Below are positions 1 to 46,281 of a DNA stretch of 64,000 nt, in pieces. The notes below the pieces were generated by a model. The model did not search any database and was not told where the DNA came from. It was given only the letters and a program-made list of their open reading frames with translations. A program made the translations under genes and the position numbers. Source of the stretch: Marsupella aquatica (taxonomy: Eukaryota > Plantae > Marchantiophyta); contig OZ316891.1 in assembly GCA_973895155.1 (NCBI GenBank), forward strand, positions 21,773,068 through 21,837,067, given 5' to 3'. Positions within the stretch are counted from its first letter, which is position 1. The number at the start of each line of letters is the position of its first letter.

Positions 1-4
1 TGTT

Positions 5-7195: not shown

Positions 7196-9550
7196 GAGGA
7201 ATATTGCTCTCCTAGTTTTACGTCAGACAACACAAATTATGAAACTATAATGTACTCTACATATTGATTCATCACTTTGCTTCCGACATGTGTTCTAACC
7301 AAGAGCAATGGCATTGATAAATTGTCTTGTAGACGTACATGAATATAATTTGTAAAGTTTTTTATGTGCATCTCATCGTTTTCTGCTGCATGCAATTAAA
7401 TACTGTGGTGGGTTTGCCAAAGTTTCAGTTCATTGTTTTAGCTTGTTGAAAATTATATTCACTATTTATCTTCTTTAGTGGTGGCCTTGTGATACTAAAG
7501 TTTGTTGCCTGGACATGTAGGTCCAAGACAACTTTGACTTCAACACAATAGAGTGAGCAACAGGCGTAGCCGTTGACAGTAAAAGCACAGGTCAGATTTG
7601 GGTATGCACTAAACTATTATTGGGCAACTGCATATAATTAGCCTCTACGTGCCAGAAGTCAGCCCTGTCAATAATGCTAAAGAGTCCATAGATCGAGTCA
7701 CTCAAGGAGAGGTATCTTTGTTGGGACTGTGTATGGATCGAGTATCAATTGCAAGCATTCTTAGCACAAGGCTTGGTTTCTGTGCAAAGACAACTCAGAC
7801 TAGTATATGGACGTACGTAGAGTTTAAGAAATTAATCTAAAAATTTGCTGCTAATTCATAACTAATCAATCGATCATGGCAAGAAGCTGAATATTTAGTC
7901 TGATATATCGAGGGCTTAGTTTGAGGTAAATTAAAAATGACTAGATCAAATATTTTGGGCCAGATTCTGGGCCTTCTAAGATCTAGGAATTGATCTCAGT
8001 CAGTAAGGGTCGATAATGTATATATTGGCATATATGTGATTGAGTAGAGTAGAGTAGAGTAGAGAGGTCGGGGGGACGACTACCTGTGTCACAACATGAA
8101 CTCATTTGTCCAACTTGCACGTCTTGGTCTAATTTAACATTCACACTCTCACAGTCTGCAGTCTACCCGGCTGTCTACTCAGTTCAGTGTACAAGAATCA
8201 AGTGCCTTAGTTTCATTACGATGCTACATGTCGATAATATGCTTGTCAGAGTGTATGCTTGGCTGTGCAAACAGACCCATTCAAACAATTAATGCAGCAA
8301 ACTGTTGTTGCTTACTGTTGGCAGCCATGTGGAAGATAGTAGCTTAGAGCAACACTCAACAATAGAGTTTCCAAGCACGCGGTAGGAAGACTAAATTTTG
8401 GTTGTATGTTTTCATTTGGTTCTACAAATCTCACATGCTTTTGATCAGATTGTCTTTTTTTCCCTTCAGAAGTGGTTGTTCTTTAAATTAGTGTTCCTTT
8501 GTCACCTCCGCCCTTGCTATTTGGGTGGATTGACTCATTTGTTGATCATGCCTCTCAGTATTGAGTCGTGTTCTTGTAACTCTTTGTGATTGGTAAGAGT
8601 TTTAATGCTCAACTTTTGGTTTTGTTCCTTTGTGTGGTGCAGTATGCTGCGTAAAGGCGTGGAAGGCCAGGACTATTCTCACATGCTGTGTGAAGGCCAG
8701 GACTATTCTCAGTGGTAAGTGCTGCTACATGATTATACTGTTGGACATCCTTAAGTCTCTATCGTTGTTTTGGAGCCTTTGTTAATTGGAAACTTCTTGT
8801 TATGGCATATCTGTTTGAATATATACCCTTTGATATTGGCTTTGTGAGCACATGATGAAGTGTGATCTTGGATGTGTTTGGCAGTCTAGGAAGGTGGATC
8901 GCGCTACCCCTTCTCATCTCAATAACTGGCCTAAACGTGGCATATATCCCTTTTTCTAATCCCCATCAGCGCGGAGTTGTTGAGGCTTGAGCTGGTCTGA
9001 GCAGGGTTGCTGAGCTAACTTGAAGTGCACTTGATCATAGGTAACCTGCCCTCAATCTCTGTAGTCCAGAGTGTGCTGAAGATTGCCATAGCAAGATTTG
9101 TCCTATTGTGCTTGACTATTCCTAAAGGTCATTTTATGTTCATTAACAATAACCAAAGTCTAAACTTGGAGGTCACAACTAAAAGTTTATGGAGGATTGT
9201 AATATCCCCTTCTTCCCACAATCCTAACTCAATCCATGAATCCTTCAAGTAAGTTGTTACGGACTATACACCTTATCAAAGAAATCATCCCTGAGGCCAG
9301 CAGCTAAGTCGTTACGGCCAGTGCATTTCCTGAATCCGTTCCATGTTGTGGAGTCCCAATAAAATCACTCCACTCCTAAGTCAGCTATCATTCCAGCAAT
9401 CCCACTTTATGAAATGGATTGCATTTTATCCCTACCAGCTCAAACCATGATGTGCAATTCAACTGTCTCTCACATCGTGTCCCCTTGGCCTCTCTGTGGT
9501 CAACTGAGCTAGCCTTCCTTTGAGGCAATACATTTATCAATTGCTGCATG

Positions 9551-10438
9551 AACCATGGCTTGTGCTGCGAAGCAAGTGACCTCGATTATCCTCCCAGTCG
9601 GCCCTGTCTCTGAAATAGATTTCCATGATTTCATATAGCACAAACCATGGTTTGCACATCTTTATGTTAAGTCTAATTCCACCACTCTGACCTCAACTCA
9701 CCTTCCTTTGAGGCATTACATTTTCCAAACCTGGTGCCTTGTACCTATCGTGGCACAAACCATGGTTCGTGCTGTGAAGGGGTAATATGTGACTCCCACT
9801 ATCACAACTCACATCTGGACTTGGCTGTCCTTCCAGCCAACAATTTTCTAGCAAATGGATTTACATTTGTACTTGCAGCACAAACAAGGATTTGCACATC
9901 ATGCATGTCCACCCAGTCCAATTTCTAATCTTAATGAAGCTCAATTTTGCTTTCAAGGGCATGAACCATGGTTTGCTCTGAAGTTTATCTTCCTAGTCAA
10001 TTTTTCTAGACCTTGTTGCACAAAGGGACCTATTGATATCCGAGCCTTATTACTTCATGTTCATTTTGATTGTTAGTGTTGCCATTCATTTAAGGTGAAA
10101 GTCATATCATTTGCAGTGCAAACCATGGTTTGCACTACTGAGAATAAGTATCACAAGCCCTCATTGCACGAATCTTGGTTTGCAGTGTCCCCATTGATTT
10201 GTCCTGAAGTTCATTCCCTGTAACCATTTGCAGAGCAAACCATGGTTTGCAGTACAAAGAATAAATACCAGTCACAGCTAGCTATCTTGCACGAACCTTG
10301 GTTTGCACTGTCCCAGTAGTCTTTGATTCAATTCATTTAGATTCAAAGCTAAATATTATTCCATGAACCTTTGTTTGCACTATCCCTAGTCATCTTTGAT
10401 TTCATCTAGATTTAGAGCTTGCAGCATGAACCATGGTT
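9551..10438. promoter_or_regulatory. Cluster of palindromic AACCATGGTT motifs upstream of ParB-like gene 1
   Basis: Core at 9643, 9758, 9964, 10121, 10238 and 10429, with variants at 9551, ~9884, ~10171, 10294 and ~10365. A 22-bp perfect palindrome AGTGCAAACCATGGTTTGCACT lies at 10115-10136. The regulatory role is inferred. Confidence 0.6.
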
Positions 10439-10635
10439 TGATGATCTACATTTTGCCAGAATCCAAACTACTCTATGCTGTCCCTGGGAGAAAATTAAGT
10501 CAAACATTTCAAAATATCTGGTTTCTTTGAACATTCAACATGTTCTTTAAAGAATATCCTTGACACATCTTGCCGACAGTATTCTTATGATCAAATTTGT
10601 TTTTGTTGTGAAGCAGAGCGAGAACGCACATAGTC

Positions 10636-13600
10636 ATGGCATCCGAAGGAGAAACTAGCAAGAAGAAGCGGAAGTCTTTGGAAAAAACTGATGGAAGCCC
10701 AAAAAAAAGGAAAGCGAAAGTTAGAAAGGGTGTCACAGGAGTGAATTCCATCACTAATTTTTGTGGGAGGAAGATGACATTGAAATCCACCATCACCGAT
10801 ACTGTTGTCCGAGTTGAACAGAAAGATATGAAGCACTGGGGAGTGGTGCTTGATAAGAATGTTCTTCGGATGTGCGTCGCTTCTGAAGAGGGGACTTTGG
10901 TATTGTCAGACTCTCGAATTCTCAGTTGTGTTTATGAGAAAAATGTCAACCTGAAAGACTGTCAAGAGGCTTTGGTCCTTCTGGTCGAGGAGGATACCGT
11001 CGATGAATCACAAAACAATAGGATTTGCTATTGTTTCTCCATAGAGGTATTTGGGATGTTTGACCAAACATACATTGAGGCAAATTGTAGATTATCTCCG
11101 GAGGCATTCTCAACCATTTTGGATCCCACATTCCCAAAGGTTTCTACACTCATAAATGGCCCAAGCATTGAGAGGTACATGTTATCCATCTTGGCATGGG
11201 CAAAATGCACCTTCCCGGAAACATTTCGTGTTGGAAAGAAGGAGGAACTTGAGAAGCAATCCAAGTTTGAAACAGGAGAACTTCCAAAAGTGATCACTGG
11301 AGAAAACATTGGAGATCTTTGCAAGAGTTTCAATGGTGTTTATAAAAAAGCAAACATCTTTGATAGTAGAGTTTTCAATGTTGAAAATTTGAAATGCCAC
11401 ATTGCACCCAATGTTGTAAAATGTAGAGGACATGACCCTGATTACTCAAGGGACCTTGCCAACTCGATGAAATTTCAGTCGTTGGTAAATTTTGAGAAGC
11501 GGGTTTGTTTCCTCATCCCAGTGCTTTGGGATGAGAGCAGGAGCACTGAAGTTGGCTATTGTGGGACTCCATTGTCACACCCACCGATCCTTGATCAAAT
11601 TGACAATTATCATTTTTGGATAATTGGAGGCCAGCACACAGTAATAGCTTACCGATTACTTTTGAATGATGAATCAGTGGATGCTGCTATTCATCAAAAA
11701 TGCCTTACAATTGATGCCGTGATGTTTTGGGCACCATATGATTTGGCTGGGAACCTGGTAATGATGGGATTATCAAAGACATTGAATCATGTCCATCACA
11801 CAGCGATGGATGAATCCCAATTTTTCTTGATTGCAAGACAGGTCAGAGATATTTGGAAAAGTTATGGATGTCCTCCTTCAGAGACAAACAGCACCAAAGA
11901 TTCAAAATGGAAGGTAAGAGTCATATATTTCATAAGTTTATTTTTATTCTTGTTTAACTTCTGCTAGTGCATCTGAATGCAATAGAATGTGAAAAGTATA
12001 ACAGTGTGAACCATGGTTCGTATCCACCTAATGATTTTAGTTGTGTGTGAACAACACTTCTCAAAAGCAGCAATGATCGTCATCCCTTGGGCTAAAGAGG
12101 AGAATGGAAAATTTAATTTGGGTGAACTTGGACCTTTCATCTTAAATATGATAGATTCCACCTTCAACTTGTGGATGAAAGTTTACGAGATGTCAAGAGA
12201 AGGAAAATTGGTTGCTTTCAATGGGTTCTTACAGAGAGATGTTATTAAGAAAGATTCTGCTCAAGGAGCTTGGGAGGTGGCACGAAGAACATTTCGGGAT
12301 TTTCTTGGTGTTGAAGATGCAGTGTTGATGAAGATTGCAAGGTATCTTCTTACCAATAAGAAGATCTCACTAATGAAGCAACGAAGTAGCGGAATTGCAA
12401 AGAAGATAGATGCAGTTCCTATCGAAGAAGATTTCATTGCTCTTGATGAGTATTGCGTTCAAAAGAAGCAGGATAAGGAGTTTGAGATACTGCTTTTGAA
12501 ATATCTTGCAAAAGATAATATGCCTAAGGGGAAACTACGAGCGTTGCCCATGGAGCAGAGAATCGAGAAGGTGAATGCAATGCGAGCTTTTTTTAAGCTT
12601 ACTCCAGATAAAGTTGAAAAACTTTGAACTACGCTTGGACCTGCAGTAATCCCAAAATCATTAACGAAGAACACTGGAAATGACGAGTTGCAAAATCTTT
12701 TGCCTGGAGTTTTTAAGAGTTTGATATGGTCAATCAGGGCTTCAGTGGATGGAAAAGGTAATCCGGTGGTTGTGAAACTTGACCCAAAACTTAGGTTTTG
12801 TTCAAATGAGGGATTTGGAACTCCTGCATTTTTTTGTCCAATCATCTTGGAATTGAAAGAAATGGCAACATTCATATTCTTGGATGCTACCATGATACCT
12901 GGAATAAGTCCCATGACACGGAAGACATATGAAGCATTCTTTGATGCAGCTTCTATGATTGGGTCCAAACCATCTCATGTCGTGGTAGTGATATCATCTG
13001 CGATCGACTCTTTCTTTGTGATGAGTGCCATTTCAGCACACCCACATTATGTTGCATTCACAACACAATACTGGACACAATCTCGACCGTCATCTTCTAC
13101 ATCGACAATTTATGATGTCAATTGTCTTTTTGTAACTTATGCATTCTTCAAAGTGTCATTCACTGAAGAATGTGAGGCAGATGAGATTTCTGGAAAAATT
13201 TTGTTAAGCTTTAAGAAAGCAGGATGTTTGAAGAATTATGAAGAGACAACAGAAGATGTTGCAGAGCAGACTCAGTTTGGGGAGAAAAGCAAGAGTTTCT
13301 ATGATAACTTGACTTCTCAACTTGTCTCATTTGACAAGTTTTCTGTCTGTTTTGGAGATGGCCGACATCTGATCCACTCCCTTTTGGTATGAGTTTTTAA
13401 ACCCCAAACCTTACAGTTGAAAGTTCATTTAATTATTCAACTATATTGAAATCCCAAGTATTAAAACTCAGTCTCATGGTTTTGCAGAACTTGGGAGCTC
13501 GGGTACGTTCATATTGTGACGAGTCTAATCACGAAGGACTTACGCAGTTCTTTTCTTCCACAAACAAGTTTAATCATGATCAGCCTGAAGAAGCATCATG

Positions 13601-16600
13601 TGAACTTCGAAGTATTTTAGAGAAAAATATTGCCAGATTGATGAAGTATAATTTGGCCAAGAAGAATATGAGAGAGGACATTATTGAGCTTTGCAAAGAT
13701 ACCTTACACCTTGGTGAAAGTAGTATTGCTCGTGTGATCAAGGAATATGGATTGGGCAACATTCCTGAATCAGATGACAAAGTCTACGAAATGCCAACCA
13801 ATGTTCCTACTGATCCACTTGGAGGTTAATATGACTACCATTTGTTATAAACTACCATATTCAATAGCTAATGATGAATTAAGTAGCCAAACTTGTCATA
13901 TGCCAGATATGAATCATGAATTATAAATCGATGTTCTCAAGAGAATGATGTACATGATTTGATATAGAATGATTGATTGATGAAAATATTAGAATGAACC
14001 ATGGTTGGAACAAGTTGGATGTGTGAAGTTAGATAAATTTATCAAGACAATATAGAACCTATTATTTGGTATAGTCCAAACATTTCAAATGGATAATAAT
14101 TCCAACTAGAGTTGAAGCAAATACTAATACGAACTGAACAACCCAATCATAGTTTTAACTTGTCAAATGAATCGCTTAAATTCTATAAATAGATTAACTT
14201 ACTCTGGAATTTTGTGAAAAATTAGATTAGTACTTAACATAATATAGAAAACACTTGTCTAATACATCATGTAGTCATTGAAATTAGGCAAAGCAAACTA
14301 ATAGCGATATTTAATAAATAAAAATAATTAGAAGTTTATTGGTTCACCATATTTATCTATTGTTTGTTGTTTTGGTTGTAGGAGATGAAACCAATTCTAT
14401 TGAGGACGAGAACAAGGATGAGGACGAAGAGGATAACATTGATTCCCCGAATGCTTGGCAGCCACTAAAGTTGGATCACGTGGAATCACCAAATGATTCA
14501 ATGGAAATTCTTGACTCGTTCAGGGCTTTCCAAACCGAACCAGAGCTCAATGTCGAGGAACAAGGAGTTTCAATGACCAAAGGAAGATGCCCTACCTCAA
14601 ATCTAAATGCAAAGAATGTTAAAAATATCCAATCAAATTGTAGCCGTGCTGGGGTGCAAGAATCAAATCAAAGAAACAAAAATGAAGTGGCATTTGATGA
14701 AACCAAAAGTAAAAATGAGCGAAGAATGATTGTCCGCAAATTTGTGTGGGAAAATTATATTCCTGATCAGGAAACCAGTTGCCCAGATCACATTTCTACA
14801 ATAGATTGGGATGAGTTCTTTCGAAGCGAAGCTCAATTTCATGGGTGGAAAGCAAGAGCATATTGGCATGAAGCTTTGACTCATCGCTCCGGTTTGGAAA
14901 CCCCTGAACAAATCACTAATTTACAAGATAATGTCTATTATGCAACAGAAGTATGTGAAATGGTTGGAGATCCTCCTATTGATGTTTTTGCCATTCAAAG
15001 TGAACCTAAAAGCACTATTAACAAATGGACTTGGATGAAGGAGTATCAACTAATCTCCAACCCTATCACTAACTCTATAGATACACCCGTGTCTAATCTT
15101 AATGATGCTACACTAGATACATGTGCAGTTTATCAAAGTGATTATGAACAAGCAATCATCCAAGATTTGGGTGTGAAGAGAGATGATTCTTTCATTCCAA
15201 ACGAGGAAACAATAAGAGACAATGCTTTGGTCGTGAATCCAATGGTGGAGCAGATGGATCCTTTACTGGTTGAAACTAACATTTTGGGCACGTCTCCCAT
15301 ATCGACAGAGCAAGTAAATGTTGATGGTGATCCAGTGGAGAAGAAAATGGATCCTTCAATGGTTGAAACTAACATTTTGGACGTGCCTCCCACATCGACA
15401 GAGTCAAGAAATGCTAACAACAACCTAGCAAGGGAGCAGATGGATCCTCTAGTGGTTGAGACTAACATTTTGGATGTGCGTCCCACATCAACAGAGCCAA
15501 TAAATGCTAACAATAACCTAGCAAGGGAGCAGATGGATCCTCTAGTGGTTGAGGCTAATATTTTGGATGAGCCTTTCACATTGACAAAGCCAAGAAATGT
15601 TGACAGCAACCTAGCAAGGGAGCAAATGGATCCTCTAGAGACAAGAAATGTTGAAATCAATGCACAAGTGGATCCTGTTATGATTTTGGCCGAAAAACCA
15701 AAGGTGTCTCACACATCGATGGACCCTAAAACAAATGAGAGTGATTTGTTGGTAGATAGTGAAGAACATCCTTGGATCCAACAAGCCACTAACCTTGAAG
15801 ATCAAGACATACCGGAGGTGGGAAAAATTGCGCCTTGGGAAGAGGAAGCATCTGCTGCAGCCTACGCTGATGGATTGAATGAATTACCACCTCCTTTTTT
15901 GGGGATCCCATTAGTTTCAACTTCTCATGGAGATTGTTCACAAACGACTCCGGCAACAAGAATGGAGCTTCCTAAGACTGGTTCCAAGGTCATTCCAGGT
16001 CGTGCCACTCGACGGGATTCAAAGAGACCCTCGGTGATAGAAAAAGTTACTATGCTGCCAAAGGTGAAGAAGACACCTCAGCAGATTTTGCGCAACAAGA
16101 AGTAATGATTTTATTTTGACTATACTTAAAATGTATAATGTTTTTCATAGTGCTATAAATTGTTTGATTGTTTAGGTGCAATCTGAGCCCAAACCAGCAA
16201 ATTGGTCATAATGGTTGTGAATAGTGTATAGTATCAAGGAAACTTACCCATTATGGTTGCAAAAGTCATTGCAACAAGATAAGAGGGAACACTTCCAAAT
16301 ATGGATCAATACTCAGTATATTCGTGATCATGGAGATAGAAATCATTCAAGGAGATTCCATGTGTTTAATAATCAGGGTACATTTTGGACTACTTATCAC
16401 ACTTATTTGTAGAATGAACCATGGTGCATAGTTAATTTATGACATATTTTTGGGTACTATTCTAAATCTCATCTGTGTGTGTTGTGTACAGGTGAGAGTT
16501 GAAAAATTATTCAGGAAATTACTTGTCATAAGTATCAACAAGTTCCTCATTTACACAACTGGGGTCTCTCGTCATTTGAAGAAGACATCATCTTTCCGAG

Positions 16601-17034
16601 TTTATAACAAAATGATCTTTCCGAGACCATATGTACAAGAATTTCTTGAATTTTGCACTTCAACTTTTGATGTGGTTCTTTGGGCACTCACTGACACATG
16701 CAAACTGGCTGATCAAATGGATCCAATACTCACAGATAAAGCTTTGAGTTTTTCTGGTCTTAAGTATCTTACATCAACTTTGATGGACATGAAACAGATC
16801 AATGATATTTATCCACAATATCAAAGACAAAATGTTATATTTTTAGAGTGTTATCCATCATTTGATAGTGTAAATCCAATGTATTCAAGGCTGTATCCCA
16901 AGCCGTATTATGGTAATTGTAAAGACAATTTTCTTAGAGGCACACTTATTCCATATTTACATAATCTAGAAGATTCTGGTCAGACAGCGCATAAGTTTAT
17001 TAAATATCACTATCCTACTTGGTCTGAAGTATGA
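10636..17034 (+). pseudogene. Multi-exon ParB/Srx-like + MTase-like + acidic/repeat + FCP1-like gene (locus 1), with at least one nonsense lesion
   Basis: Exons approx 10636-11913, ~12040-13386 (acceptor/phase unresolved), 13488-13824, 14381-~16100 and 16492-17034. ParB-like HFWIIGGQHT. In-frame TGA at 12625-12627, where the paralogue has Arg. FCP1/NIF-like PRPYVQEFLEFC...FDVVLW. Colinear with the 28674-21967 gene and shares intron positions with it. Confidence 0.7.
15240..15645 (+). repeat. Coding tandem repeat of ~87-99 bp (EQMDPLVVETNILD... units)
   Basis: About 4.5 units visible in the ORF 14339..16105 translation. Confidence 0.85.
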
Positions 17035-18287
17035 GACAGTATCAATAGAAATGTAGTAAAAGAAACCACAGCTTGTGTGGTGTAGTGTTTAGAATATATT
17101 CAAATGTATTCTTTTTGGATAATAAAAGTTACATTATTTACGTGAAAAATTGAAATGATTGATTACTGCATTATATATTCATGAATGATTACTTGTAATG
17201 TTCATTTTACTTCATAATGTCGAATGCCAAAATGTCTACTTGTAGAGCAAAAATTCTATTCTTGAACTCAGTTTTGGCAGCACCCGATAATACTTGTAAA
17301 TTCAGTCTTTATATTCATAGTGTCTGATGCGAAAATAGATACACATAGTATAAAACTTGTCATTTTGTAGAGATCTACTAGTGTTAAATGCAAAAAATTT
17401 GGCTTAAGTTTCTTTTAGGCCCTTGGAACTTATTGAGTATTATAGCCAATATTAATTCTCAAATTCAGTAGATACCAATTTAAATGAAAACTTTTTGTTT
17501 ACTCACTATCAGTGTATTGCATTGAATATGCATTTCACCAACAAATTAGAATACGAACCATGGTTTATTGTATGTTTTGACACTTAATTTGGTTTACTTC
17601 TTTTTTTGTTTGGGGAGGGGGGGGGAATAAAACCCGCAAAAACCCATGGGAAGGGGGGCCCAACAGGGCAACAAAGACAGAGGCAGCAAAATGCAAACCT
17701 ATGAGATGGAGAGAGAGCCCCAATGAGCAAGGACAAAAAAAGATGCGGTCCATGCAAGCAAGGAAAGACACAATCCAAAAGAAAAGTGTCCAAGCGTGTG
17801 ACCCACCTAAGATGTTCCTGACTAACTAATTCTTTTACTCTAAGTAATCTAGTATGTTTTCTACCAAGACCCGAGGCTTTGCAGAGGCCATGCAAAGAGT
17901 CTAACATTTATGAAAGGAGTAGATTCAAGTTAAACACTCAATTTGGTTTACTTTGTTTAAATTGTTCCTATCACATGTGACTGAACTTGGATCCATCAGG
18001 TTTTTGTTGATGTCCTGGAGCATACCATACTTTCAAACTAGAGGAAAAGAGTTAATACAATGGGGGAAAATGGAAGTCTTGGACACTTCCCCCTTATATA
18101 TGGCCCGTGGTGGTTTAAATTTATTTATTTATTTATTTAAATGAATTAAATAAATCAGTAATATCTTTGTAAAACTTCATTTAAGCATTTATGGAATTGA
18201 AAATTCCACTTTTATCTAAATAAGGGTTGAGTGTTGTCAACCTACATACGTTGAGTTATTGTTGGGGTACTCATAATGTATTTATCG

Positions 18288-18552
18288 CTCGGGGGTTTCA
18301 CTTCCACAAAAATGGCATATCACGTGCGACGAAGTATAGGGTCATTTTATTGGTTCAAAGGGAAGACTTAAGAATTTTCTGAGAAGAACAATAGAGTTTT
18401 TTAAATCAAATTTTGATACTTATAAGAACATTAGTATCCTTATAATCAAAATTTAACTTTATAGGGGTTGATTTTTTTTTTAAAATTCTTACATTTGAGG
18501 GGGTCCAAGGCCTAAAATGATGAGGAGGCATCCATATAGTGAGACCCCCGAG
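18288..18552. mobile_element. MITE family M, copy 1 (TIR CTCGGGGGTYTCAC, 8-bp TSD)
   Basis: Starts ctcgggggtttcac and ends gtgagacccccgag. Flanks are ATTTATCG / ATTTATCA. Homologous to 39322-39603 and 42626-42922. Confidence 0.9.
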
Positions 18553-18559
18553 ATTTATC

Positions 18560-20309: not shown

Positions 20310-21067
20310 TTAATTTGATCTCATGCCGACTATTATTTTGGAAGCGTCCAAAATTGGGCGTCTGTTAAATTGCTCTACTAGATATCTATCTCCATGCCTC
20401 AAAATCACAGGGTCTTCCCATAGAGTATGATTATAATCATAATCTCTAAAAATATATTTAACTGACCAATTAGGATAATCTCTTCCATTGGCAATGACAA
20501 GCGGCTCACAAGAGTTTGCTAGCTTGCTAAGATACGGAATCAGCAAGTTAATCAGGAAACTGTCGTCGACCGACCCAAAATATTTGGGCGGAAATAATGA
20601 TCCAACAACAGGATCTAAACAAGCATGAAATGCATCGGATTCGATAAGCATTATATTTTGCTACAGATATGCCTTCGTATAAATTCCAACCTTCTCAAAA
20701 CACTTCAAAAATATCCGCTTATTTGATGTCACCCCATCGCATAAGTAACAATGAGACTGATCCCAAATATACTTAAATGAGGCCATTTCCATCGCAGTAA
20801 AAATAGATGCTAAAATTTGATCTAAAAGGTTCTTCCCAAGAGAGGACCAGATCCCTACATCGAAATTCTCAAAACAAAATCTCAAGAATTCATGAAGATG
20901 AGGCCTTGGAAAAACGTATATATTCCCATCTGAATTCCAGTTGAGACCGCCATCAGTCGGGAATGCGGTGCAGTGTAATAGAGTATATGCTCCATGTCTA
21001 AAACTATGAGCCCAGGCATTTTCTTTGCTGCAATGAATCTCCTGTAGAGAAACACAAGAAGATGCAT
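20310..21067 (-). pseudogene. FCP1/NIF-like HAD phosphatase domain, unit 3 (frameshift and stop)
   Basis: LIVLDMEHIL, PRPHLHEFLRFCFENFDVGIWSS, IWDQSHC, DDSFLINLLIPYL; TAG at 20661-20663. Confidence 0.75.
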
Positions 21068-21127
21068 GAGCCCGTATGGATGTAGTCACGCGAATGGTCG
21101 CGTCACATATTACAGAGACAACATCCT

Positions 21128-21835
21128 CTACACTCTGGCCATTGATAAGTGACGTCTGTTGAAGTGCTTGATAAGAACTTGATTCGCATGTCTCTGCACG
21201 TACAGATTCTCCCATATATCCTCGTTCAGATCCCAATCTCGATGTAGATTTCTAATCGACCAGATGGGATAATCAAACTTGTTAGCAAACGCAAGACAAA
21301 GCCCTGAATTTGATAGCTTTTGTAAATATGGAATGAGGTCATCCCTCAAAAAGACATCATCCAACGATCATTGAAACGACTTAGCGAACAATAATCCGCA
21401 TACAGCTGTCTGGCATGTATGGGAAGGATAGGCATCAATTTGGATTATATTCTCTGGTTGATAATCTTGAAACATATCATGTAGTCTCTCGATAGATTTG
21501 AAGACAACAGTCTTATAATTTTTCTTCACATAACCAAGATTCCAACAATGATCCTACGTGAACACATATATCAACTGCGACAGGTCGGTGCTCGACAACA
21601 CTTCTGAAAGTATCTAATAAACCAGTTTATCATTGAGAATAGACCAGACCATCACATCAAAATGATCATAACAGAATTTTATAAGATCATGAAGATGCGG
21701 CTTCGGAACGACACATAGAGATCTGATACGAATTCCGGGTGTTGACTTGAGCTGAGGAGTATATTTTGAAACAGAGCACAGGAAGTTTGCCAGTCCTAAA
21801 ACCAGAAGTTGACGCGACCTGCTCCACTTAGACAC
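21128..21835 (-). pseudogene. FCP1/NIF-like HAD phosphatase domain, unit 2 (degenerate)
   Basis: LLVLGLANFL, PKPHLHDLIKFCYDHFDVMVWS, DDVFLRDDLIPYLQKL; internal stops. Confidence 0.7.
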
Positions 21836-21966
21836 CTATAAATGAACAATTCGATTCTCATATTATGCAATTGCAAACAACCACGCGATCGGGCGCGTCA
21901 CTCCCAAAATATAAAGTTCAATTTCAATCAATTTATAAATAATAATTGATAATAAACAATAAATGT

Positions 21967-22737
21967 TTACTTATTGGACTTATCCCGGGCTTCTATAGCA
22001 TGGTCTTTTTCGGCAGATAAGTATTTCATAAATTTGTCAAACTTTTCTAAATGGTCTTTATTCCCCTGATTACGAATGATCACATTTCTCCTCCAAAGAT
22101 TTGTCTTATCAATATAATCTTTCTCAAGATTTTCTTGAGAGAACGTTGGAATCCCATATCCACTAAGGAGCTCGCGGAATGTCAACTTGTCAATTGACAT
22201 GTCGCATAGATATGTATATAGTTTCTTTCTAAAAAATAGGTCATCATCGAGCCCAGAATATGCATCGGGATACAGCGATGAATAGAAGTCATTAAGGCTC
22301 GTCTTATATGCAGCATCATCGATAAGAATGACATTCTCGATGTTGTAATCTTTAATATTGGCGGCAATGTTGGAGAGACATTTGACAAATAAGGGGATGT
22401 CATTATTATTCTTCCCAATAAGTCGAGTTGATTCTTGTCCCCATATAAATTTAATACGTTTCAAAACTTCGGGTCGAAGTATCAGCCTTACACAAGATAG
22501 AATATTTCGTTTGAACATGCACGACCAGATCGCAATGTCGTATAGATCTACCACCTTCTCAAGAAATTCCATTAAATCAGGCCTTGGATAGATAACCTTG
22601 TGCATCTGTCTCACACCCCTTGACCGAATGGGCATCCCAGGGCTGATCTTCTCTGACCAGATAAGTACCCGATTCAGATCAAAAATTACAAGTCTCTTTT
22701 GAACCGGTGACTTCTTTGCCGATGGATTAGGCGCCAT
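21967..22737 (-). CDS. FCP1/NIF-like HAD phosphatase domain, unit 1 (terminal exon)
   Basis: RLVIFDLNRVL, PRPDLMEFL, DIAIWS, FIWGQE, ENVILIDDAAYK. Confidence 0.85.
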   Translation of the reverse strand: MAPNPSAKKSPVQKRLVIFDLNRVLIWSEKISPGMPIRSRGVRQMHKVIYPRPDLMEFLEKVVDLYDIAIWSCMFKRNILSCVRLILRPEVLKRIKFIWGQESTRLIGKNNNDIPLFVKCLSNIAANIKDYNIENVILIDDAAYKTSLNDFYSSLYPDAYSGLDDDLFFRKKLYTYLCDMSIDKLTFRELLSGYGIPTFSQENLEKDYIDKTNLWRRNVIIRNQGNKDHLEKFDKFMKYLSAEKDHAIEARDKSNK

Positions 22738-22958
22738 CCGTACCTGTGATTTTTGTGCCGCAGGGTTTGGAGAACGTACTAGAACGGTCTATTTGTTTCC
22801 CGCCTCCGGACGATCACCGGACTTCCGGACTGGTGCCTTCGATACTCGATCAGGGGGTTTCGGGATAGGCTTCTGTAAAACATTAAGAAATGAAAATAAG
22901 TTTATAACGTGAACGGTCGCATGACTACAAAGGAAGACACTAAAATGAAGTGTATTAC

Positions 22959-23748
22959 CTGTACAAGACGGTTGTTCAGTGCTGGAATTCCGCCGGAAAT
23001 GTCAATCATAGCAGCACGGATCCCGGTAACTAGGTTACTTGCGGATGTTGGCTTGCGGAAGTCCATGTCAAATAACGACAAGACTATCTCCCTACGAAAT
23101 TTCTCAATTTGATCCAAGGAAAAATTAATTCTGTTTCCTTGACACAAGCACTTGGCGTATCTCAAGATAAACACACCACAACTGTGGCCGTCACTCTGGT
23201 GAGGAATATCATTCCGATATATCCGTTCCCAACCTGAGAGATCCAAGTTGACACCAGTTCTCCAGCCAATTTTGTCGGCGTAGTACTTCCCAACAATATC
23301 TAGCACCCCAGGATTTTGTTGATTATGAACTAGAGAATCTAGGTACCCGAGCCGTTTCTCCTTCGGATACACAACTACCAATGACCAATGTTCTTTCACA
23401 GCATTGTGTACTGAAAAGACCAGTTTGTCGTATTCACTGATTTTTAGCGGAAACTCCTTTGTCCAAGCTGCTCTCTCCTCATCGAAAATGGTAGGATCCA
23501 TGGAGAGAAGCTCAAAATGGTGTGTTTGGAAGAATTTGACAAGGTCTGACTTTCCAACTCTATCGAGAATCAGTTTGAGAAAACTCAAATAAGCGTTAAT
23601 TATATCATCGGTGAGCAACTCGCGCGGTCTTAGACACATCATATGTTTCCTCTTGATCGAGTGTTGTAAGAACTTGGTCAATAGCTCTTCCATATCCTTA
23701 GAAGGATCAAGGCATTGATCTATTCGACTAGCCAAATTTTCAAAAAAC
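22959..23748 (-). CDS. Ulp1/peptidase C48 (SUMO protease) exon
   Basis: LTDDIINAYL, EHWSLVVV (His), YLDSL (Asp), HQSDGHSCGVF (Gln/Cys): the catalytic triad is intact. Confidence 0.9.
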
Positions 23749-24559
23749 TGTAAAAAACAGAGATTTCAGTACGCCTTCAAATAACGTACTGAGGTTGTAG
23801 CCTAAGGGTTCTACCTCAAAAAACAGAAACAATAACAAATCAATAATAAAATAATGACGTCTATAATAGAAACTTTAAGCTTATAGCTTGCGAATGACCT
23901 TTGGATTGGGTGGATCCGGCCTTTTTGCAGCTGATCTCTTGGGTGCCTCAATCGCAACAACATCCTTCAGCCCTCCTCGAGACCGCAGTGATCGCTCCAC
24001 CGGACCAGTTTGCGAAGGTTGGAGCGATGAGGCGGGAAGACCTTCAAATGGTTGTGGCATTTGATTCAAATATTCCACAATCTGGGAATCCGATTCCAAA
24101 ATATCCGGTGCCACAATTTCTGCGCGAGTGACCTGTGCAATATATCAGGGTCAAGACCACGAACCCGGTCGTGTCAAGTCAGCTGTTAGTATCTTAACGA
24201 CTTGAGCCGAGTCTGGTGCCAAAGACGTTCCCAGGTCTTGCACTCGATTCTCAAAAAAGCGGACATTATTGATGATTGTCTCCATTCTGGATGTGCAGTG
24301 GTAGTCTTCTCCTCGGTAATCAAAAGACCCTTCCAATATTGCAAAGCAAGGACTGCCTGGACTCGGAGCTGCTCCGGTGAATATTTATTCCAATCATCCA
24401 ATGAGACCGTACTTAAGGGTGGATCGTTAAATTCAAACTCCGGGCGAAGAAAATAGTCTAATATTTTCTTCTTAACTGCAACTGAGGGTGAAGAAGGCTC
24501 CTTCAAATTTAGCTTTATTTTTGGTAGATGTTGTGCCTCAGGAATAAGCGAAAGATCCT

Positions 24560-25205
24560 TAGCCCTCTCGGCCTCCTTCCTCGCTGCCTCCAGTCTTGCG
24601 GCTTCTTCTCTCTCCAGTCTTGCGGAATTGACCTTTTCCGCCTCCAACTTCTCCGCCTCCACCCTCTTCGGTCTTGCGGTCTCGTCCGCCATCCTCTCGG
24701 CCAGCAGCCTCTCAGCCGCCACACTCTCCGCCTTGGCCCTATTTGCCTCTGTCACTAAAAGGACTCTCGTAGCCTCCGCTTTCTCAGCCTGGGCTTTCTT
24801 CGCCTCCGCTTTCTCAGCCTCGGCTTTCTCAGCCTCGGCTTTCTTTGCCTGGGCTTTCTCAGCCTGGGCTTTCTCAGCCTGGGCTTTCTCAGCCTGGGCT
24901 TTCTCAGCCTCGGCATTCTCAGCCTCGGCTTTCTCCTTCTTCTTTGCGGCAGTTGCTTTTCTAGCTACCGCCTTTTTCTTCTTAGCCTCCTTCTTTTGAA
25001 GCTCCTCTTGTCGGGCCGCCTCTTGTCGGGCCGCCTCTTGTCGGGATGCCTCCTCTTGTCGGGCCGCCTCCTGCCGGGCCTCCTCCTGTCGGGCCGCCTC
25101 CTCCTGCCGGGCCGCCTCTTTTTTTTGAAGCTCCTCTTGCCGGGCCGCCTCCTGCCGGGCCTCCTCCAGCCGGGCCTCCTCCTCCTACCGGGCCGCCTCC
25201 TCTCG
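24560..25205 (-). repeat. Coding low-complexity repeats (AEKAQ/AEKAE 15-mers; EEAARQ units)
   Basis: ttctcagcctgggct and cctcctgccgggccg repeats. Confidence 0.85.
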
Positions 25206-28200
25206 GTCCACCTCATGTCGAGGCTCATGTGTGGCCTCTTCATCAGAGTCTCAGCGTCCTCAGAACCCTCCATCTCCTCGTCCTCTTCATCAGCATCCTC
25301 AGCGTCCTTCATCTCCTCTCCGTCACTCTCTTCATCTCCTCTATTATCGGAATCTCCGACGTCGTTCTGCGTATCGGTCATCCACTCTAGATCTTGGTCA
25401 TTGACATCCCCATCCGCGTCACCTTCCGTGTCACCTTCCCCCTCACCATCCGCATCACCATTGCTCCCTGCATCCTCAACATTGAAGCCGCAGTCGACTT
25501 GATCTTAATAAAATCAGATCATTTGATAAGAATGACTCACGCGCATATTCGCGTGAAAAGAAATGTTAAGAATGTCCACGCGCATGTTCGCATGATGCAA
25601 TAAAAAGTAAGAGGTTTCAAAAGTAACCTATCTTGGATTGGCCCACTAGGGTACTCCGTTGGTCGAATGTACAATCGATCGGAATCTTCAGAGAGTGCAT
25701 ACTCTTGCAATAATTGATTACAAATATTATCAGGGATATGTTGTTCGTGGAGGACATCCAAAACATCAGCCCTGAGAGCAGTTACGGATGGACGGTACTT
25801 CATTAATTTATCTATACATTTTTCTATACTAGCCCGTACTGGGTCAATCAATGACAGCGTTGTATCAATTGTCACCGTGGTGTGTTGCAAGAAACAAGAC
25901 AACTCCCTATGCATTGCCACAAGGCAGTAATATTTTACATTGGATCCAGCATCCTGTAAAAAAAGCCAAAATTAGTTCACAATATTAATTGAGAATATAA
26001 TAATCTAAATAATCTTAAAATCGAAACCCCAAAATATAAATCTCAAAACTTACCATCAAGCACTGGATCAAGTTCGTTCCCTCACCGAAGCATAGAGCCC
26101 ATTCCCCACATTGGACGAATTGACTAACAATACTTTCAAAGAATGGAAGTATCTTTTCTGGGGAAGGTGTCGTGAACTCGCCGCTCTCTTCAAGATTGGC
26201 TATCTTCTCAATCCGATATTTGGAGACCAATTGGAACTCGAGGGCTTGTGGATCGCCCATTGTGTTGAAGGCCAAGCTGTGAAAAGCGTAGGTTACAATA
26301 AGCTTCTTCTCCTTCGGCCGCTTCTAAATATAATGGCTATCGACAGCAACGTAGTGTGTGTACTTCCCTAATTCCCATTTGATTAAGTAAGACTCAATGG
26401 GAGAGGCTACAATAATAACCACATGGTGTGGTTTTGCCCCTATCTCGCTAGTAGCACGAAATAACCCCTCATAGAATGAGCAATTTGGCGCACGCAAATC
26501 TCCCATTGATGAGGGATCAAAATAAATCAAGCTCGCAAGGTTCTTGTCTTCACGTATGATACAATCCGCAAACCCAGCATTTTGTATATCCTACAGGGAT
26601 CGCAATTTCAGCCTCTCACCAACCGGCCGCACTAGTTGGTTTCCTTGACTATCAACTGATTTATGTATTCCTTCCACCAACCTGTAGAATATCGGGTCGA
26701 TCTCTTTCAACAAATTATCATTATTAATATTTACATTTAAGCACTTCTTCAGATAACCACTCAACGCATCTCTCAACTGCTTCAACACCATCTTGTCGAG
26801 CTTAAAGCGATCAATCATTCCTTTGACCCGCAATTTCCGCGCTGAATCTGTCAGACTTTTCAGCTCCGTCCGGGTGGATGTATTCCCGTTGAGTTTACTC
26901 AATAATAAAATCTCAAACTCAACTTTCGTCTTCTTCTTTATACATAATTGCTCCAAACTCATGCTAGTCGTTGACAACATTGGAGCCTCAGAGGACTTCC
27001 TCGCCTTCCCAGATTTCACTTTGATGCTTTGGTTTTTGAGTATAGACAGTCTTCCGCTCAACATATATTCTGTTGCCTTTCGAAGAACCGAGTTTGAGCA
27101 CCCTTGACAAGAATGGAACGTCTTCTTCAGAAAGATGATAAGCACATGGATTATCCGCAATTTTGACGGCGTCCCTCTGTAAAATTCCGTTGTAAATTAC
27201 AAGCTCTCCTGTCCTTGATAGTTTGTAGACCTCCATCCACTTCTTGAATGTTTTGTCCTCCATGTAAAGAGAAACAGAGCCAATTCTCCAAATTTCATCA
27301 TTTCGTTCATCCCCATTTGAGCCCATGGGCAAACAAAACTCTAGCTCTCATAAATACCTGAAAAACAATGGAAACATGACAATTCTAAGATTGACGCGAC
27401 CGTTCGCATGAGAAAAATTCTAAGCTTGACGCGACCGTTCGCGTGACAAAAGTTTAAATGATAATGTGATCGAAGAGGATTATTTATATACCTTCCAATT
27501 TGGATGATGATAATGTGATCCAGGCCGCCCAAATGAGTTCCAGATATTACGACACTGTTGTACAATGGTGAGAAACTGTCCTTCCATTGATGTTTGATGA
27601 CAGTGGTTCAGAGCTTTCGATAATCCCATCAAATGAACATTATTGTCGTTGTTGAGCGTTGCCCAAAACATTACAGCTTCTACAGTACCGCAAGCGTCTC
27701 GTACAACTTGGCTGACTTTGTCGTCCTCTTTCAATCAGCAATTTGTACGCCATTATTGTGTGCTGGCCTCCGAGTATCCAAAAATGACTGGTCATAATGT
27801 CCTCCTCCTTTGGCGCCGAATCGTAGGGCGCCCCATTGTAGTCAAGATCTCTGTCGGCCTCCGACTGAACCCACTTCACAGGGACTAAAAAGCAGCATCG
27901 CTTTTCAAACTTTATAGTCGAATGAGAGAGGAGTGAATTCTTTAGCCTACCTGTGTAATCATGATTCCACTCTCGGCACTTGATATGGTCCGGTGCAAGA
28001 TGACAACGTGATGTCTCAACAAAAAATGACTTGCTGTTAAATATATTCACAGCACTATATTCTTTGAGGAAAGAATCGAATAGAGCCCCGACATTCGCTG
28101 AGGTAATTACTTTCGGAAGATTCTTCGCCGAGTATACTTTAACCTTGGTCACTGGCGGGGCCTTTCCCAAGCGAAATCCCTGGTTGAAAGGAACTCTCTA

Positions 28201-28749
28201 GAACTCAAGTACGTCAATAATGTATTGACAAATCAAATCTCCCGTTGATCCCTCTGGATCGGAAGGATATCCCACACTAGTAACCTTTTCCAAGGCGTGC
28301 CTTGCATCTAGAAGATCATCGATTTTGGACTGATTGAAGGTTACGTATTGCGTTTGATCCAAACAAATGCTTATTTTGTCCTCTTGCTGGTCGTCGCTAA
28401 CTAGCAGAACCAATCCCTCTGTACACTCTTTAACTTTCATGTTCTTCTCAAAGAAACACCCAAGAATTTGTGATCTCTCCAAAACTGTAGCTTTATCATT
28501 TTTTGCCACCACAAGACGGACAACCTCATTGCGAACAACTATTCCAAAATCGGATATCTCAGTCGATTCAAAGAGATGGATACTCTTTGTCTCCGTTGTT
28601 CTCTCTCTGATTGACTTTCCTCGATATGCTTTAGATGAATCTCTTTTCCGCTTTGAAGTTCCGGTAGGATCCATTCTGAAATAGACAAATATTGAAAGTT
28701 AAACGTTTATTATAAAATACTAACACGCGCATGGTCGCGTCGTGCCGAA

Positions 28750-29220
28750 TTACATTTTAGGAACGTTTATCTTGACCCAATCTTCTCGCTCATCTTCATC
28801 TAACCAAAACCAAAGGTTCCTAAATGTGTCAAGTTTAGATCCTTCAAATCCACCCAGAATGTCCAGTGGCGGGAGAGTTCTGATGGATTCTGTAAATCTG
28901 AATGCTACACTCCGTGAAGGCAAATGCCTTTGAAGCGATTCATATCCTGGTCTATCAGTGAAGTCGTAAGCTACCAAGGTGACCGTCGCCCAAGTACTAC
29001 TATAAGTAACTATGTGGCACCACTCCTTACTAACTGTTCGAATGGCGATCAAGTCCATGACCCGATTTTTAATCGCATTATCCGAAGACAGTGGAAAAAC
29101 TCTTTGACTAATGGCCAAATATATTTCTCGACAATATCGTCCGGAAGACCGGGTATCAGGTCTTCAGCTTGACTCCATATCATGTTTTGGTTCATAACCT
29201 TTGCACGTGCAATGCGCTCC
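28750..29220 (-). pseudogene. F-box-like ORF 1 (frameshifted)
   Basis: IPGLPDDIVEKYIWP upstream, then DLIAIRTVSKEWCHIV. Confidence 0.55.
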
Positions 29221-29468
29221 ATCATCATTTGATGATGAGATTTCGATTCATGTCAAAGGACTGCAACATAATATGGAAAATATTAAGAACAAGAACCTAT
29301 CCATTAAGAACTGGGACCACCTAGATTCTGAGAAAATCTACCAAACCTTTTGATTAGAACATCTCGTTCTTCCTCATCTAAATAGTTATATTTGTTCGTA
29401 AACAATAAGATTTTGTCAGAAGTAGTAGTCCCAAGAACAAATATTTCTGGAAGCATAGAAATATCTTG

Positions 29469-29870
29469 TCAAATAACTCGACAGATTGAGTCAAACTCCA
29501 ACTCGTCAGTTTCAGGTATGTAGTAAAGTGCTTCATTTGCGTCATCGACAATCCGGTTTGCTTGTTTGAGGATAGCCCATAACCTTGTATTTGTAACTAA
29601 AAAGTTCCACTTCTTGCTACAAGCTCCAAGCTGAATAAGGTCTCGGACCCTATCGATAACCAAATCGTTATCGGGGTGTCGATATCGACGCAATCCTTCA
29701 ATTGAAATAAAGTGTTTGTAGAGTATTGGCCAAATGTTTGAAATGACCAAAACATCTGGTATTCCTCCAATGAGACTAGAGGAGGTTTCATCCAGCGTAT
29801 CCCATATTGTTTTCTGTTTCCTTTCATGAGATGAAAGGAAATCTCGAGCCTCATTCAAAAGTTGGCTCAT
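29469..29870 (-). CDS. F-box-like ORF 2
   Basis: LIGGIPDVLVISNIWPIL...IQLGACSKKWNFLV. Confidence 0.6.
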   Translation of the reverse strand: MSQLLNEARDFLSSHERKQKTIWDTLDETSSSLIGGIPDVLVISNIWPILYKHFISIEGLRRYRHPDNDLVIDRVRDLIQLGACSKKWNFLVTNTRLWAILKQANRIVDDANEALYYIPETDELEFDSICRVI

Positions 29871-29935
29871 CCTGCTTTTATCATATCACAAAACATTGTT
29901 AGAAGACATATGATGCGCTTGGTCACATAAGTTAA

Positions 29936-30487
29936 CTAGAATTCCTTAAAAGCGTAGATGTCACCCTCAAGGTATCCAACTTTGTGGCATCTGACTATAA
30001 ATTTCCATTTTTCAAGAGGGTGAAGAGCATCGTAAGTCTTCGTGAAGAGTTCCCTAAGATCTCTGGACATTGACCCCATGAATTTAATTCTTGGGTATTT
30101 CTGGAAGAAACTTTGAACTGTCGATGAGAGAGACTCATTTCCGATCGGTTTAGTAGGATTTCCTGGGAAAGCCAAATCTAATAAACTCAACTTGATTACA
30201 CCCAGAAGATAGGTATTCCCAACAAGGTGGCGCCATCTGCGACACACCGAAGATAGTCCTACAAACTCATCCAATTCCTTTATTGAGAAATTTCTTGCAT
30301 TAGCCAAGGAATTAAAAGACTCCTTGATCCGAGGCCATATCAATTCTGCGACAATGAAATTTGGAAGTCTAGGTAGTAGTATTTCAACAAATACAGAATA
30401 TACCGCCAGTAGACCATCTTGGCTTCTGTCCAAAACGTTAAATATTGGGCATAGATATCTGAAGCTCTCCAGACCAGGTTTGCCCAT
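29936..30487 (-). CDS. F-box-like ORF 3
   Basis: LLPRLPNFIVAELIWPRI...LSSVCRRWRHLV. Confidence 0.65.
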   Translation of the reverse strand: MGKPGLESFRYLCPIFNVLDRSQDGLLAVYSVFVEILLPRLPNFIVAELIWPRIKESFNSLANARNFSIKELDEFVGLSSVCRRWRHLVGNTYLLGVIKLSLLDLAFPGNPTKPIGNESLSSTVQSFFQKYPRIKFMGSMSRDLRELFTKTYDALHPLEKWKFIVRCHKVGYLEGDIYAFKEF

Positions 30488-30628
30488 GACTCTTTTCAGC
30501 CAAATGATATATCCCAGAGATTATTTTCACGCGACTGGTCGCGTCTACAAATCAGAATGTATAAACAATTCTTTGAGAGACTGTGATTTTGTCGGGTCAC
30601 AACGTGACAAATCATAAATGTTGCTTCG

Positions 30629-31353
30629 TCCTCTAACAGAACCAGTCAATGAGAGAGCTACCTCAGACGCGATTGGTCGCGTCAACTGATCCTAAATGGA
30701 AGAGTACCTCCTCTAACAAAACCAGTCAATGAGAGATCTACCTCAGACGCGACTGGTCGCGTTAACTGATCCTAAATGAAACCTTACCTCCTCTAACAAA
30801 ACCAGTCAATGAGAGATCTACCTCAAACGTGACTAGTCGCGTCAACTGGTCCTAAAAGGAACCTTACCTTCTCTAACAAAACCAGTCAATGAGAGAGCTA
30901 CCTTAGATGCGACTGGTCGCATCAACTGAACCTAAACAACTATATTCACTGAACCTTCCTTGTGGAGATTTGGATATGGTACGCGCTCAGTAAATCTATC
31001 TAGTTTCCTTCTCACATGCGACTGGTCGCGTCAACTGATCCTAAAAGGAACCTTACCTCCTCTAACAGAACCAGTCAATGAGAGAGCTACCTCAGACGCG
31101 ACTGGTCACGTCAACTGAACCTAAACAACTATATCCACTTAACCTTCCTAGTGGAGATTTGGATATGGTATGCGCTCAGTAAATCTATCCTGTTTCCTTC
31201 TCACACGCGATTGGTCGCGTCAACTGGTCCTAAAAGGAACCTTACCTCCTCTAACAGAACCAGTCAATGAGAGAGCTACCTCAGACGCGACTGGTCACGT
31301 CAACTGATCCTAAATGGAACCTGACAATCTTTTCACGCGACTGGTCGCGTCAA
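30629..31353. repeat. Tandem array (80-bp unit, ~190-bp higher-order unit), each unit carrying ACGCGACTGGTCGCGT
   Basis: Motif at 30667, 30747, 30827, 30907, ~31016, ~31096, ~31205, ~31285 and ~31335. Confidence 0.9.
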
Positions 31354-43700: not shown

Positions 43701-44486
43701 CAACACATCTTGACGTGCCAAAGATGTGTCTCTTCTAGATGTCCGGGAAGATGAACTCTTTCTTTTCCTACTTTTATGGACGTAGGACCGCTTGCCACTT
43801 GTTGGAGATGTGTTCCCTCCCATAGCTTGCCTGATGTTGTGGAAAGACAACAAGTTTCCATCCTTGGCAATGAGTTGGTCCATCGACCAAGCTTTTAAGC
43901 AATCTCTATGCTTCAAATGATCTATGGTAGCTCCCTCGACAAAATCGTTGATCAGAATTCCCACATGTGTATTCCCAAGGGTGACATCCCCAAGCTTCAC
44001 TATAGGATCTAGAACATGTATAGTTGCCATTGCAAAAATCAACTTGTTCTCATCCACCACCTTTACAGGCATGCCCATCCACAAGGCCTTTGGTAAAACT
44101 ACTTCCACACCAGACCGACTCTCATTATGGTTGTTCCCATCATAATTTTGATTGACTGGATCTTGATCATCACCAACAGTGCCAAACACATCCTCCGATT
44201 CCATGGGAGCTCAAAAAAGCTGATTCCTTTCCCATACAAGGTAACCCCCAATCATGTCCTTCAAAAGTTTGCCATCTTCGCATAGAATGGTCTCGTCAAA
44301 AACTTCCTCCAATAGAAGAAGAACTCTGTCCGCCCCAAGAGGAACATAATTGTGACAAACCCTGGAAGGATCAAGACTTATCACGCGACCTTTTCCAACC
44401 TGTTTCTCACGTATGCCTATAATAACTTGTCCGCCTTCCCTGATCCAGACTGTCAATGTCACCATAATAATTATGATCCTGCACAT
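40774..44486 (-). pseudogene. Sola1-like DDD transposase with two N-terminal Tnp1/En-Spm-like domains; disrupted by stops, frameshifts and a MITE
   Basis: DCCSEHCC, VLCLEAWRII, HGNAG, LIHDKMDHSKT (D1), LKLQLDNCASDNKNRY (D2), FMVVGHTHEDVDGMF (D3); intron ~42280-42120. Confidence 0.75.
42626..42922. mobile_element. MITE family M, copy 3, inserted in the transposase
   Basis: Perfect 8-bp TSD TTTGAATG (42618-42625 / 42923-42930). Removing it restores LIHDKMDHSKTALPRMP. Confidence 0.95.
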
Positions 44487-46036: not shown

Positions 46037-46281
46037 CTCGATCAAAGTCAACAATATTTTGAGTAGTCGAAGATTAGAACTACAGATTCAAGAGTAGTTC
46101 AAGTTAGAACTTGTTATAGATACTGTGTAGCTTAATTTCATCCCGTGAAAAATAGTGTTCAAAAGACCAGGTCAATTAAATTCCTGGATAGTGCTAGCGG
46201 ATATGGATTCCACATCCGAAGTCCTTCGGGATCGATGTAACCATTTTTGCAATCAAGGAAAAATCATCCACAAGATTCCTC

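Follow-up and report, generated by a model that had tools for sequence, protein, structure and literature searches.

The stretch analysed here comprises 64,000 nt of contig OZ316891.1 of the liverwort Marsupella aquatica (assembly GCA_973895155.1, positions 21,773,068 to 21,837,067 of the forward strand), hereafter called the window; it shows GT-AG introns and plant CACTA and Gypsy elements. It carries two paralogous ParB-like genes, gene 1 and gene 2, each accompanied by a palindrome that differs from that of the other. Gene 1 and its palindrome, motif 1, make up locus 1, which is organised as follows.

9438..10443: upstream array of 12 irregularly spaced copies of the palindrome GYRYRAACCATGGTTYRYRC (motif counts, flank comparison, Tandem Repeats Finder (TRF))
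10636..11913, + strand: gene 1 exon 1, 426 aa, with a weak PH-like domain (aa 42-198) and a ParB/Srx-fold domain (aa 242-390) in the predicted structure
12004..12023: palindrome in intron 1 (intron 11914-12054; motif search)
12055..13386, + strand: gene 1 exon 2, 444 codons, a helical region followed by a methylase-like domain (exon alignment)
13488..13824, + strand: gene 1 exon 3, which completes the methylase-like domain (splice sites from sequence; the start resembles exon 3 of locus L001, described below)
13992..14011: palindrome in intron 3 (motif search)
14382..16105, + strand: gene 1 exon 4, an extended acidic region of low complexity that includes a 93-bp tandem repeat at 15247-15638
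16412..16431: palindrome with one mismatch, located in the intron or spacer preceding the NIF exon (motif search)
16492..17034, + strand: NIF/FCP1-like HAD phosphatase-like exon (Pfam PF03031, E=8.5e-10), which may be a separate gene from gene 1
17551..17570: downstream palindrome, close to where the repeated unit ends on the right (motif search, contig depth)

The palindrome of locus 1

The initial annotation had given locus 1 a palindrome of its own, and the counts bear this out. The core, AACCATGGTT, has nine exact matches in the window against 0.12 expected, a number reached in none of 100 shuffles, and all of them lie within 9643-17565. Six start upstream of the gene (9643, 9758, 9964, 10121, 10238 and 10429) and the others at 12009, 13997 and 17556. 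When one mismatch is allowed, copies at 9551, 10294 and 16417 are added, so that 9400-17600 contains 12 sites and the rest of the window one. The core extends from the flanks of its copies to the 20-bp palindrome GYRYRAACCATGGTTYRYRC, which at up to four mismatches matches the window 18 times: 12 times upstream of the ATG, three times in introns, once downstream, and twice elsewhere as four-mismatch matches (4771 and 57527). The null expectation for this form is a mean of 0.075 per 8.2 kb, to be read with the fact that the consensus was built from the same sites that it then counts. The annotated figure of about 11 upstream copies is therefore reached once degenerate copies are included, the exact core falling short of it; the four copies annotated at 12009, 13997, 16417 and 17556 are all present, the third with one mismatch. 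The upstream array probably lies inside an intron of the 5' untranslated region with its acceptor CAG at 10614-10616.

The copies are absent from the exons, as had been noted: the coding sequence of the gene 1 model holds none of the 12 one-mismatch core sites (P=5.5e-6 under uniform placement), and all three intragenic core sites are intronic (P=0.006). A loose 12-mer search with three mismatches gives two exonic matches, at 12787 and 15217, which is the chance level. Intron 2 has a half-site only, at its acceptor. The flanks of the motif 1 copies have a median identity of 32% and TRF calls no tandem array among the upstream copies, which sets the motif apart from an unrelated tandem repeat. 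From the remaining 55 kb of the window motif 1 is missing apart from poor matches.

Exon 2 (1332 nt) aligns end to end with the homologous proteins P0021, P0034 and P0035 and with an exon 2 of equal length in L001. Both window copies of the ParB-like gene are damaged. In gene 1 the reading frame is broken by a TGA at 12625, a position that contigs from three of four sequencing runs read as C (the fourth gives no cover), and the in-frame acceptor of its intron 1 is CAA instead of CAG; gene 2 has stops and frameshifts. In run X2 a diverged version of the gene 1 exons (10968-16943) occurs at about 4x the depth of the window version and is nearly absent from run X1; it represents a sister family that has been multiplied in a single organism.

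Palindromes and protein subfamilies

Gene 2 is 30-47% identical to gene 1 over exons 1 and 2, and its surroundings carry a different palindrome, ACGCG-N6-CGCGT (motif 2). The features concerned are as follows.

20313..28674, - strand: gene 2, paralogue, frameshifted, with ParB and methylase-like exons followed by a Ulp1 protease and three NIF-like segments
28753..31350, - strand: upstream of gene 2, three F-box-like open reading frames (ORFs; F-box below the Pfam cut-off) and a tandem array (80/189-bp units) that bears the ACGCG motif
40777..47200, - strand: DUF7869 transposase-like gene at 40.8-44.5 kb (Pfam PF25273, E=1.3e-36), interrupted by a miniature inverted-repeat transposable element (MITE), with ACGCG-motif arrays (257-bp units) upstream at 44.6-47.2 kb

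Motif 2 has 15 exact matches in the window, all within 20124-47184 and some of them in gene 2 introns, and none in 1-19700 even at one mismatch, in agreement with its annotated absence from locus 1. Two copies, at 27394 (one mismatch) and 27429 (exact), lie in intron 1 of gene 2, so that the equivalent intron does hold two copies of the other motif. The motif is not private to the paralogous gene, as had been supposed, since eight one-mismatch copies also stand in the region upstream of the DUF7869 gene; inside that gene (40.5-44.5 kb) none is found at up to two mismatches.

A third palindrome was predicted from proteins before its DNA was retrieved. The predicted proteins P0034 and P0035 run through introns, and P0034 repeats the peptide VWV[GD]RPK four times, only in read-through; such repeated read-through peptides led to the prediction. 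A metagenome scan for this third subfamily yielded five loci (L001-L005) out of 227 candidates. Their gene layout is that of genes 1 and 2, and all five carry the palindrome GTTTGGGTCG-NN-CGACCCAAAC (motif 3). L001 has 13 copies, of which nine are upstream, two in intron 1 and two in intron 2, and 0/13 in exons. At up to four mismatches the five loci hold 13, 3, 2, 12 and 4 copies, respectively; L003 and L004 are decayed, and their motifs are decayed too. Intron 1 carries two, two, three and four copies in L001, L003, L004 and L005, loci with about 70% similarity between their exons. No DUF7869, Ulp1 or NIF match was found in the five loci.

When the three motifs are scored against all loci, motif 1 has 12 sites in locus 1 and none in locus 2, motif 2 has none and 17, and motif 3 has none and a single four-mismatch match. 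In L001-L005 motif 2 is absent, and L001 and L004 each show a single match to motif 1, at chance level. The motif class thus tracks the protein subfamily in three cases: the palindromes are 20-22 bp long and lie in introns or upstream of the ATG, and no exon contains one.

For homologues of the window type, intron read-through was found in 13 proteins, mostly short, and none of it fits strict motif 2. In 63,616 background residues the motif 1 pattern, which the read-through of P0010 fits, has no match; motif 1 with an additional base at its centre, AACCA-N-TGGTT, has one, and the read-through of P0005 fits it in two places. Both patterns were chosen post hoc. From these peptides a one-base change of spacer is possible in the P0005 subfamily. 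A metagenome scan with the window-type alignment gave 39 pattern matches and no relatives, and the motifs of these homologues therefore rest on read-through peptides. A blind search for palindrome-compatible peptides was uninformative, with shuffled proteins scoring equally; only motif-specific patterns discriminate.

Protein domains and element structure

The protein family is narrow, with 28 matches among 1.84 billion representative proteins and a homologue known from the liverwort Calypogeia fissa. Word-index searches gave one match for exon 1, no longer relatives of P0021 and two for alignment A4. No Pfam match was obtained for exons 1 and 2 of either gene. The ParB-like label of the initial annotation finds support in predicted structures. 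In the exon 1 model, with a predicted local distance difference test (pLDDT) score of 80.7, the top ten Foldseek matches are all ParB, Noc or PadC (best E 2.3e-3, prob 1.0); residues 242-390 match PadC at Z 8.8 (root-mean-square deviation (rmsd) 3.0, 99 residues) and KorB at Z 8.6 in a VIA search, and residues 42-198 give weak PH-fold matches (Z 4-4.6, VIA). The model of P0035, a distant homologue, resembles the ParB of Myxococcus (Z 11.1; rmsd 2.2, 95 residues). Exon 1 is accordingly modelled with the ParB/Srx N-terminal fold in two subfamilies.

The C-terminal region of exon 2 is likely an inactive N4/N6-methylase-like domain, judging from its motifs, whose order we take to resemble that of beta-class methylases. 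No match to a methylase came from Pfam, PHROGs, NCBIfam or PDB profiles or from the fold searches. The Atlas clusters nearest to the end of exon 2 are N4/N6 methylases (PF01555 first), a weak lead with a score of only 0.78. Among the NIF/FCP1-like segments (20313-22788, 16492-17034), the catalytic region of the Pfam profile seems to be missing its first part in some copies (LIYTTG, VIFDLN). The F-box-like ORFs (28753-30520) lie in tandem between the motif 2 array and gene 2 and show no other domains.

Contig depth, a rough guide rather than a copy count, is 110-130 in run X1 on long contigs over 3000-13269 and 420-730 on gene 2 and the DUF7869 gene, with low-copy contigs at 9-24, an excess of several-fold to tens-fold; the remaining runs have similar ratios. 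This suggests a handful of copies for family 1 (that of gene 1), each of at least 14.6 kb, and tens of copies for family 2. The DUF7869 segment is flanked by inverted Gypsy copies (33875-37034 and 47287-55457) with 2509-nt arms that are 96% alike, and a 62-bp stretch is common to 20039-20097 and 39954-40015. Should this segment have undergone inversion, the transposase and gene 2 may once have formed one divergently transcribed element of about 21 kb with the 62-bp stretches as inverted ends. An AT-rich stretch of about 60 bp recurs at three positions without change of orientation (18170-18222, 20039-20097 and 39954-40015), and two of its copies could be element ends. We take DUF7869 to be the counterpart of the Sola-type transposase.

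Several other features accompany these loci. A high-copy MITE with CT(C/T)GGGG...CCCC(G/A)AG ends lies at 18288-18552, 39322-39603 and 42626-42922; the DUF7869 gene is interrupted by one of these copies, and the empty site is present in contigs. A CACTA/En-Spm element (55458-64000; Transposase_21, DUF4218, DUF4216, Transposase_24) is inserted in the 3' long terminal repeat of a Gypsy copy. A GAGAGC microsatellite-like long ORF (ESES) at 32480-32932 has the depth of family 2. In 1-9400, whose short ORFs lay outside the Pfam scan, no ORF has a product that could be recognised, and tblastx aligned nothing there with other parts of the window. A short run of AAACCCT telomere-type repeats occurs at 2899-2926, near the left limit of the family 1 region that was examined.

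Proposed function of the palindromes and alternatives

We favour, with moderate confidence, the reading that a multi-copy ParB-fold gene is an accessory of a large DNA transposon, the palindrome being its putative binding site and each subfamily reading its own word. That the palindrome is recognised by the ParB-like protein itself appears probable. A dimer would bind it through the helical region that follows the ParB core, and the sites upstream and in introns would load many protein molecules along the element at positions where no coding information is lost. The methylase-like domain, probably catalytically dead, may act as a scaffold or DNA reader, and the NIF phosphatase-like, Ulp1 and F-box-like modules may act on local chromatin so that the element stays expressed, in the way that VANC serves VANDAL. 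With words of their own, co-resident families could avoid acting for one another or for the host. By analogy with VANC, the purpose might be anti-silencing of the element, a suggestion that we hold tentatively and would put a little below an even chance.

CpG retention, used as a proxy for protection from methylation, is mixed. At codon junctions the observed/expected CpG numbers are 69/81 (0.85) in gene 2 and 74/88 (0.84) in L001, and CpG is depleted in the CACTA (30/87, 0.34) and Gypsy (10/49, 0.20) elements. This would fit protection in two families, those of gene 2 and L001, and none for gene 1.

Previously described systems offer parallels. In the brown alga Ectocarpus, the 21.5 kb DNA transposon Sola1-1_Ec32 has an accessory gene with ParB and N4/N6 methyltransferase domains on the strand opposite to the transposase, for which self-binding or modification was proposed (PMC12477816). 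The liverwort genes likewise join a ParB-like domain to a putative amino-methylase-like domain on a repeated element, and would share the divergent layout if the proposed inversion of the family 2 element holds. They differ in occurring in a land plant, in their eroded-looking methylase motifs, in the NIF, Ulp1 and F-box-like modules, and in that family palindromes have been mapped; 'palindrom' is not a word in the main text of that paper. PAG3, encoded by Plavaka elements of Bostrychia and further red algae, is a ParB-like protein with tandem inverted-repeat arrays by its gene, proposed as self-binding sites (10.1101/2025.02.11.637652). The inverted-repeat arrays beside the gene are common to both cases, whereas PAG3 has a 2-oxoglutarate oxygenase, not a methylase-like domain. 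Family-specific words or intronic sites are not reported for PAG3 in the passages covered, and the supplements may list family-specific repeats. PAG3 and Sola1-1_Ec32 are compared here by description, and neither is recognisable among the 28 matches of the family.

In Arabidopsis, paralogous VANC proteins of VANDAL elements read family-specific motifs concentrated in introns and other non-coding DNA (PMC5735166), as the present motifs are family-specific and non-coding. In contrast to our case, VANC has DUF1985/DUF287 domains, of which no Pfam match was found in the window ORFs or in these exons, and a 9-bp non-palindromic motif in a single orientation; hypomethylation was shown there, and is approached here by the CpG proxy. 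ParB-parS and Noc-NBS serve as the model case of paralogues that read distinct palindromes (PMC7383237), and the ParB paralogue VirB, acting at virS, counters H-NS silencing (PMC10676424). The N-terminal fold and the different palindromes of paralogues are shared with bacterial ParB and Noc. Unlike bacterial ParB, the liverwort proteins have an altered GERRxRA patch and PH-like and methylase-like domains, their genes are spliced, and no ParA-like gene was seen in a Pfam scan of 32 window ORFs. DUF3723, a conserved cargo of fungal Starship transposons (10.1101/2021.12.13.472469), is among the Atlas clusters nearest to the ParB core (score 0.95), a likeness by features rather than a sequence-level match, in a different element class. 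In addition, ParB-type helix-turn-helix-methylase fusions have been described in chlorophytes and chytrids (Iyer et al., PMC4738411), and a Physcomitrella Sola1 is listed in PMC9033089.

Several observations weigh against the reading that we favour. The GERRxRA arginine patch, which mediates cytidine triphosphate and ParB-ParB contacts (PMC7333895), is replaced by GGQHTVIA in gene 1 and by GGQHTIMA or DGQHSIQA in the family alignment, and because of this a canonical ParB sliding clamp is doubtful. In the P0035 model (whole-model mean pLDDT 43.8) the region after the ParB core is helical with pLDDT mostly below 50 (40-60), and three of 50 VIA rows reach into it, at rmsd 8-11; both a helix-turn-helix and a methylase fold are therefore conjectural. 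Gene 1 is depleted in CpG (33/79, 0.42), and so is the DUF7869 gene (0.36) though it shares motif 2. As to the lock-and-key relation proposed in the initial annotation, in which each subfamily would co-evolve with a private site, it is supported in part: the third palindrome at the same gene positions and the congruence of motif and protein in three subfamilies speak for it, and the small number of motif classes with DNA support (three only) and the phylogeny against it. A tree of 19 rows and 188 columns, from which rows without the C-terminal part of exon 1 were excluded, has three well supported branches of 15 (the motif 3 clade and two pairs), and in it P0010 and gene 1 do not form a group. 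One motif is common to proteins that are 55-65% identical; given the low resolution of the tree among window-type proteins, the word appears to change only between deep subfamilies.

The motif 2 arrays upstream of the transposase-like gene, whose depth is close to that of gene 2, raise the main alternative: the transposase, or another element protein, could be the reader, with sites of the TnpA or Mutator subterminal type and the ParB gene co-varying by linkage. Transposases can be sequence-specific activators (10.64898/2026.08.24.746577), and linkage alone would produce the congruence of motif and clade. Even so, sites lie deep in the introns of the ParB gene in all three subfamilies and are missing from the interior of the DUF7869 gene, and dimers of the ParB family read sites of this kind, long palindromes centred on 2 bp. 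For family 1, neither a transposase nor element ends were found within at least 14.6 kb; this counts against a transposase as the reader, and also against the reading that we favour. We consider a transposase as the reader unlikely.

The ParB-like protein might instead bind the palindrome for structure or transmission, by parS-like bridging, pairing of the ends of a 20-kb element or a bias in inheritance. The ParB fold, sites spread from end to end and the unprotected CpG of gene 1 would suit such a role, against which stand the lack of a ParA-like gene in the scan, the altered arginine patch and a Ulp1, NIF and F-box-like cargo that points toward chromatin or protein regulation; we rate it slightly lower still. 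A last alternative sees in the palindromes neutral remnants, left by local duplications or by some very small unrelated repeat and excluded from exons by selection on the protein. It would agree with the tandem arrays of locus 2 and with the expectation that any insertion avoids exons, and is very improbable and largely refuted by the unrelated flanks of motif 1, its absence from the other 55 kb and the three words at matching gene positions in three subfamilies.

The general arrangement of a ParB accessory gene with an inverted-repeat array is known from algal transposons; no publication was found that describes family-private words, two of them next to each other in a land plant. In the literature covered, to which subscription journals mostly do not belong, we found neither a land-plant ParB transposon accessory gene, nor family-private words for one, nor a paper on DUF7869.

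Beyond the favoured reading of these loci, it is conceivable, with rather less assurance than we have in that reading, that giant transposons of bryophytes carry radiating, orthogonal self-recognition systems derived from ParB, which read their own palindromes, load along the element and bring de-silencing enzymes, two such pairs lying side by side in one genome. The algal studies propose self-binding by ParB-like transposon proteins, and the locus pair together with the intact L001 offers three subfamilies, two of them in one genome, with distinct, defined sites. If the proposal is true, land plants would have, beside VANC, a second route to sequence-specific self-recognition of transposons, derived from bacteria. 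Such a plant-native parS/ParB code, independent of VANC, would provide a library for DNA-specificity switching, chromatin addressing and orthogonal long-site DNA binders.

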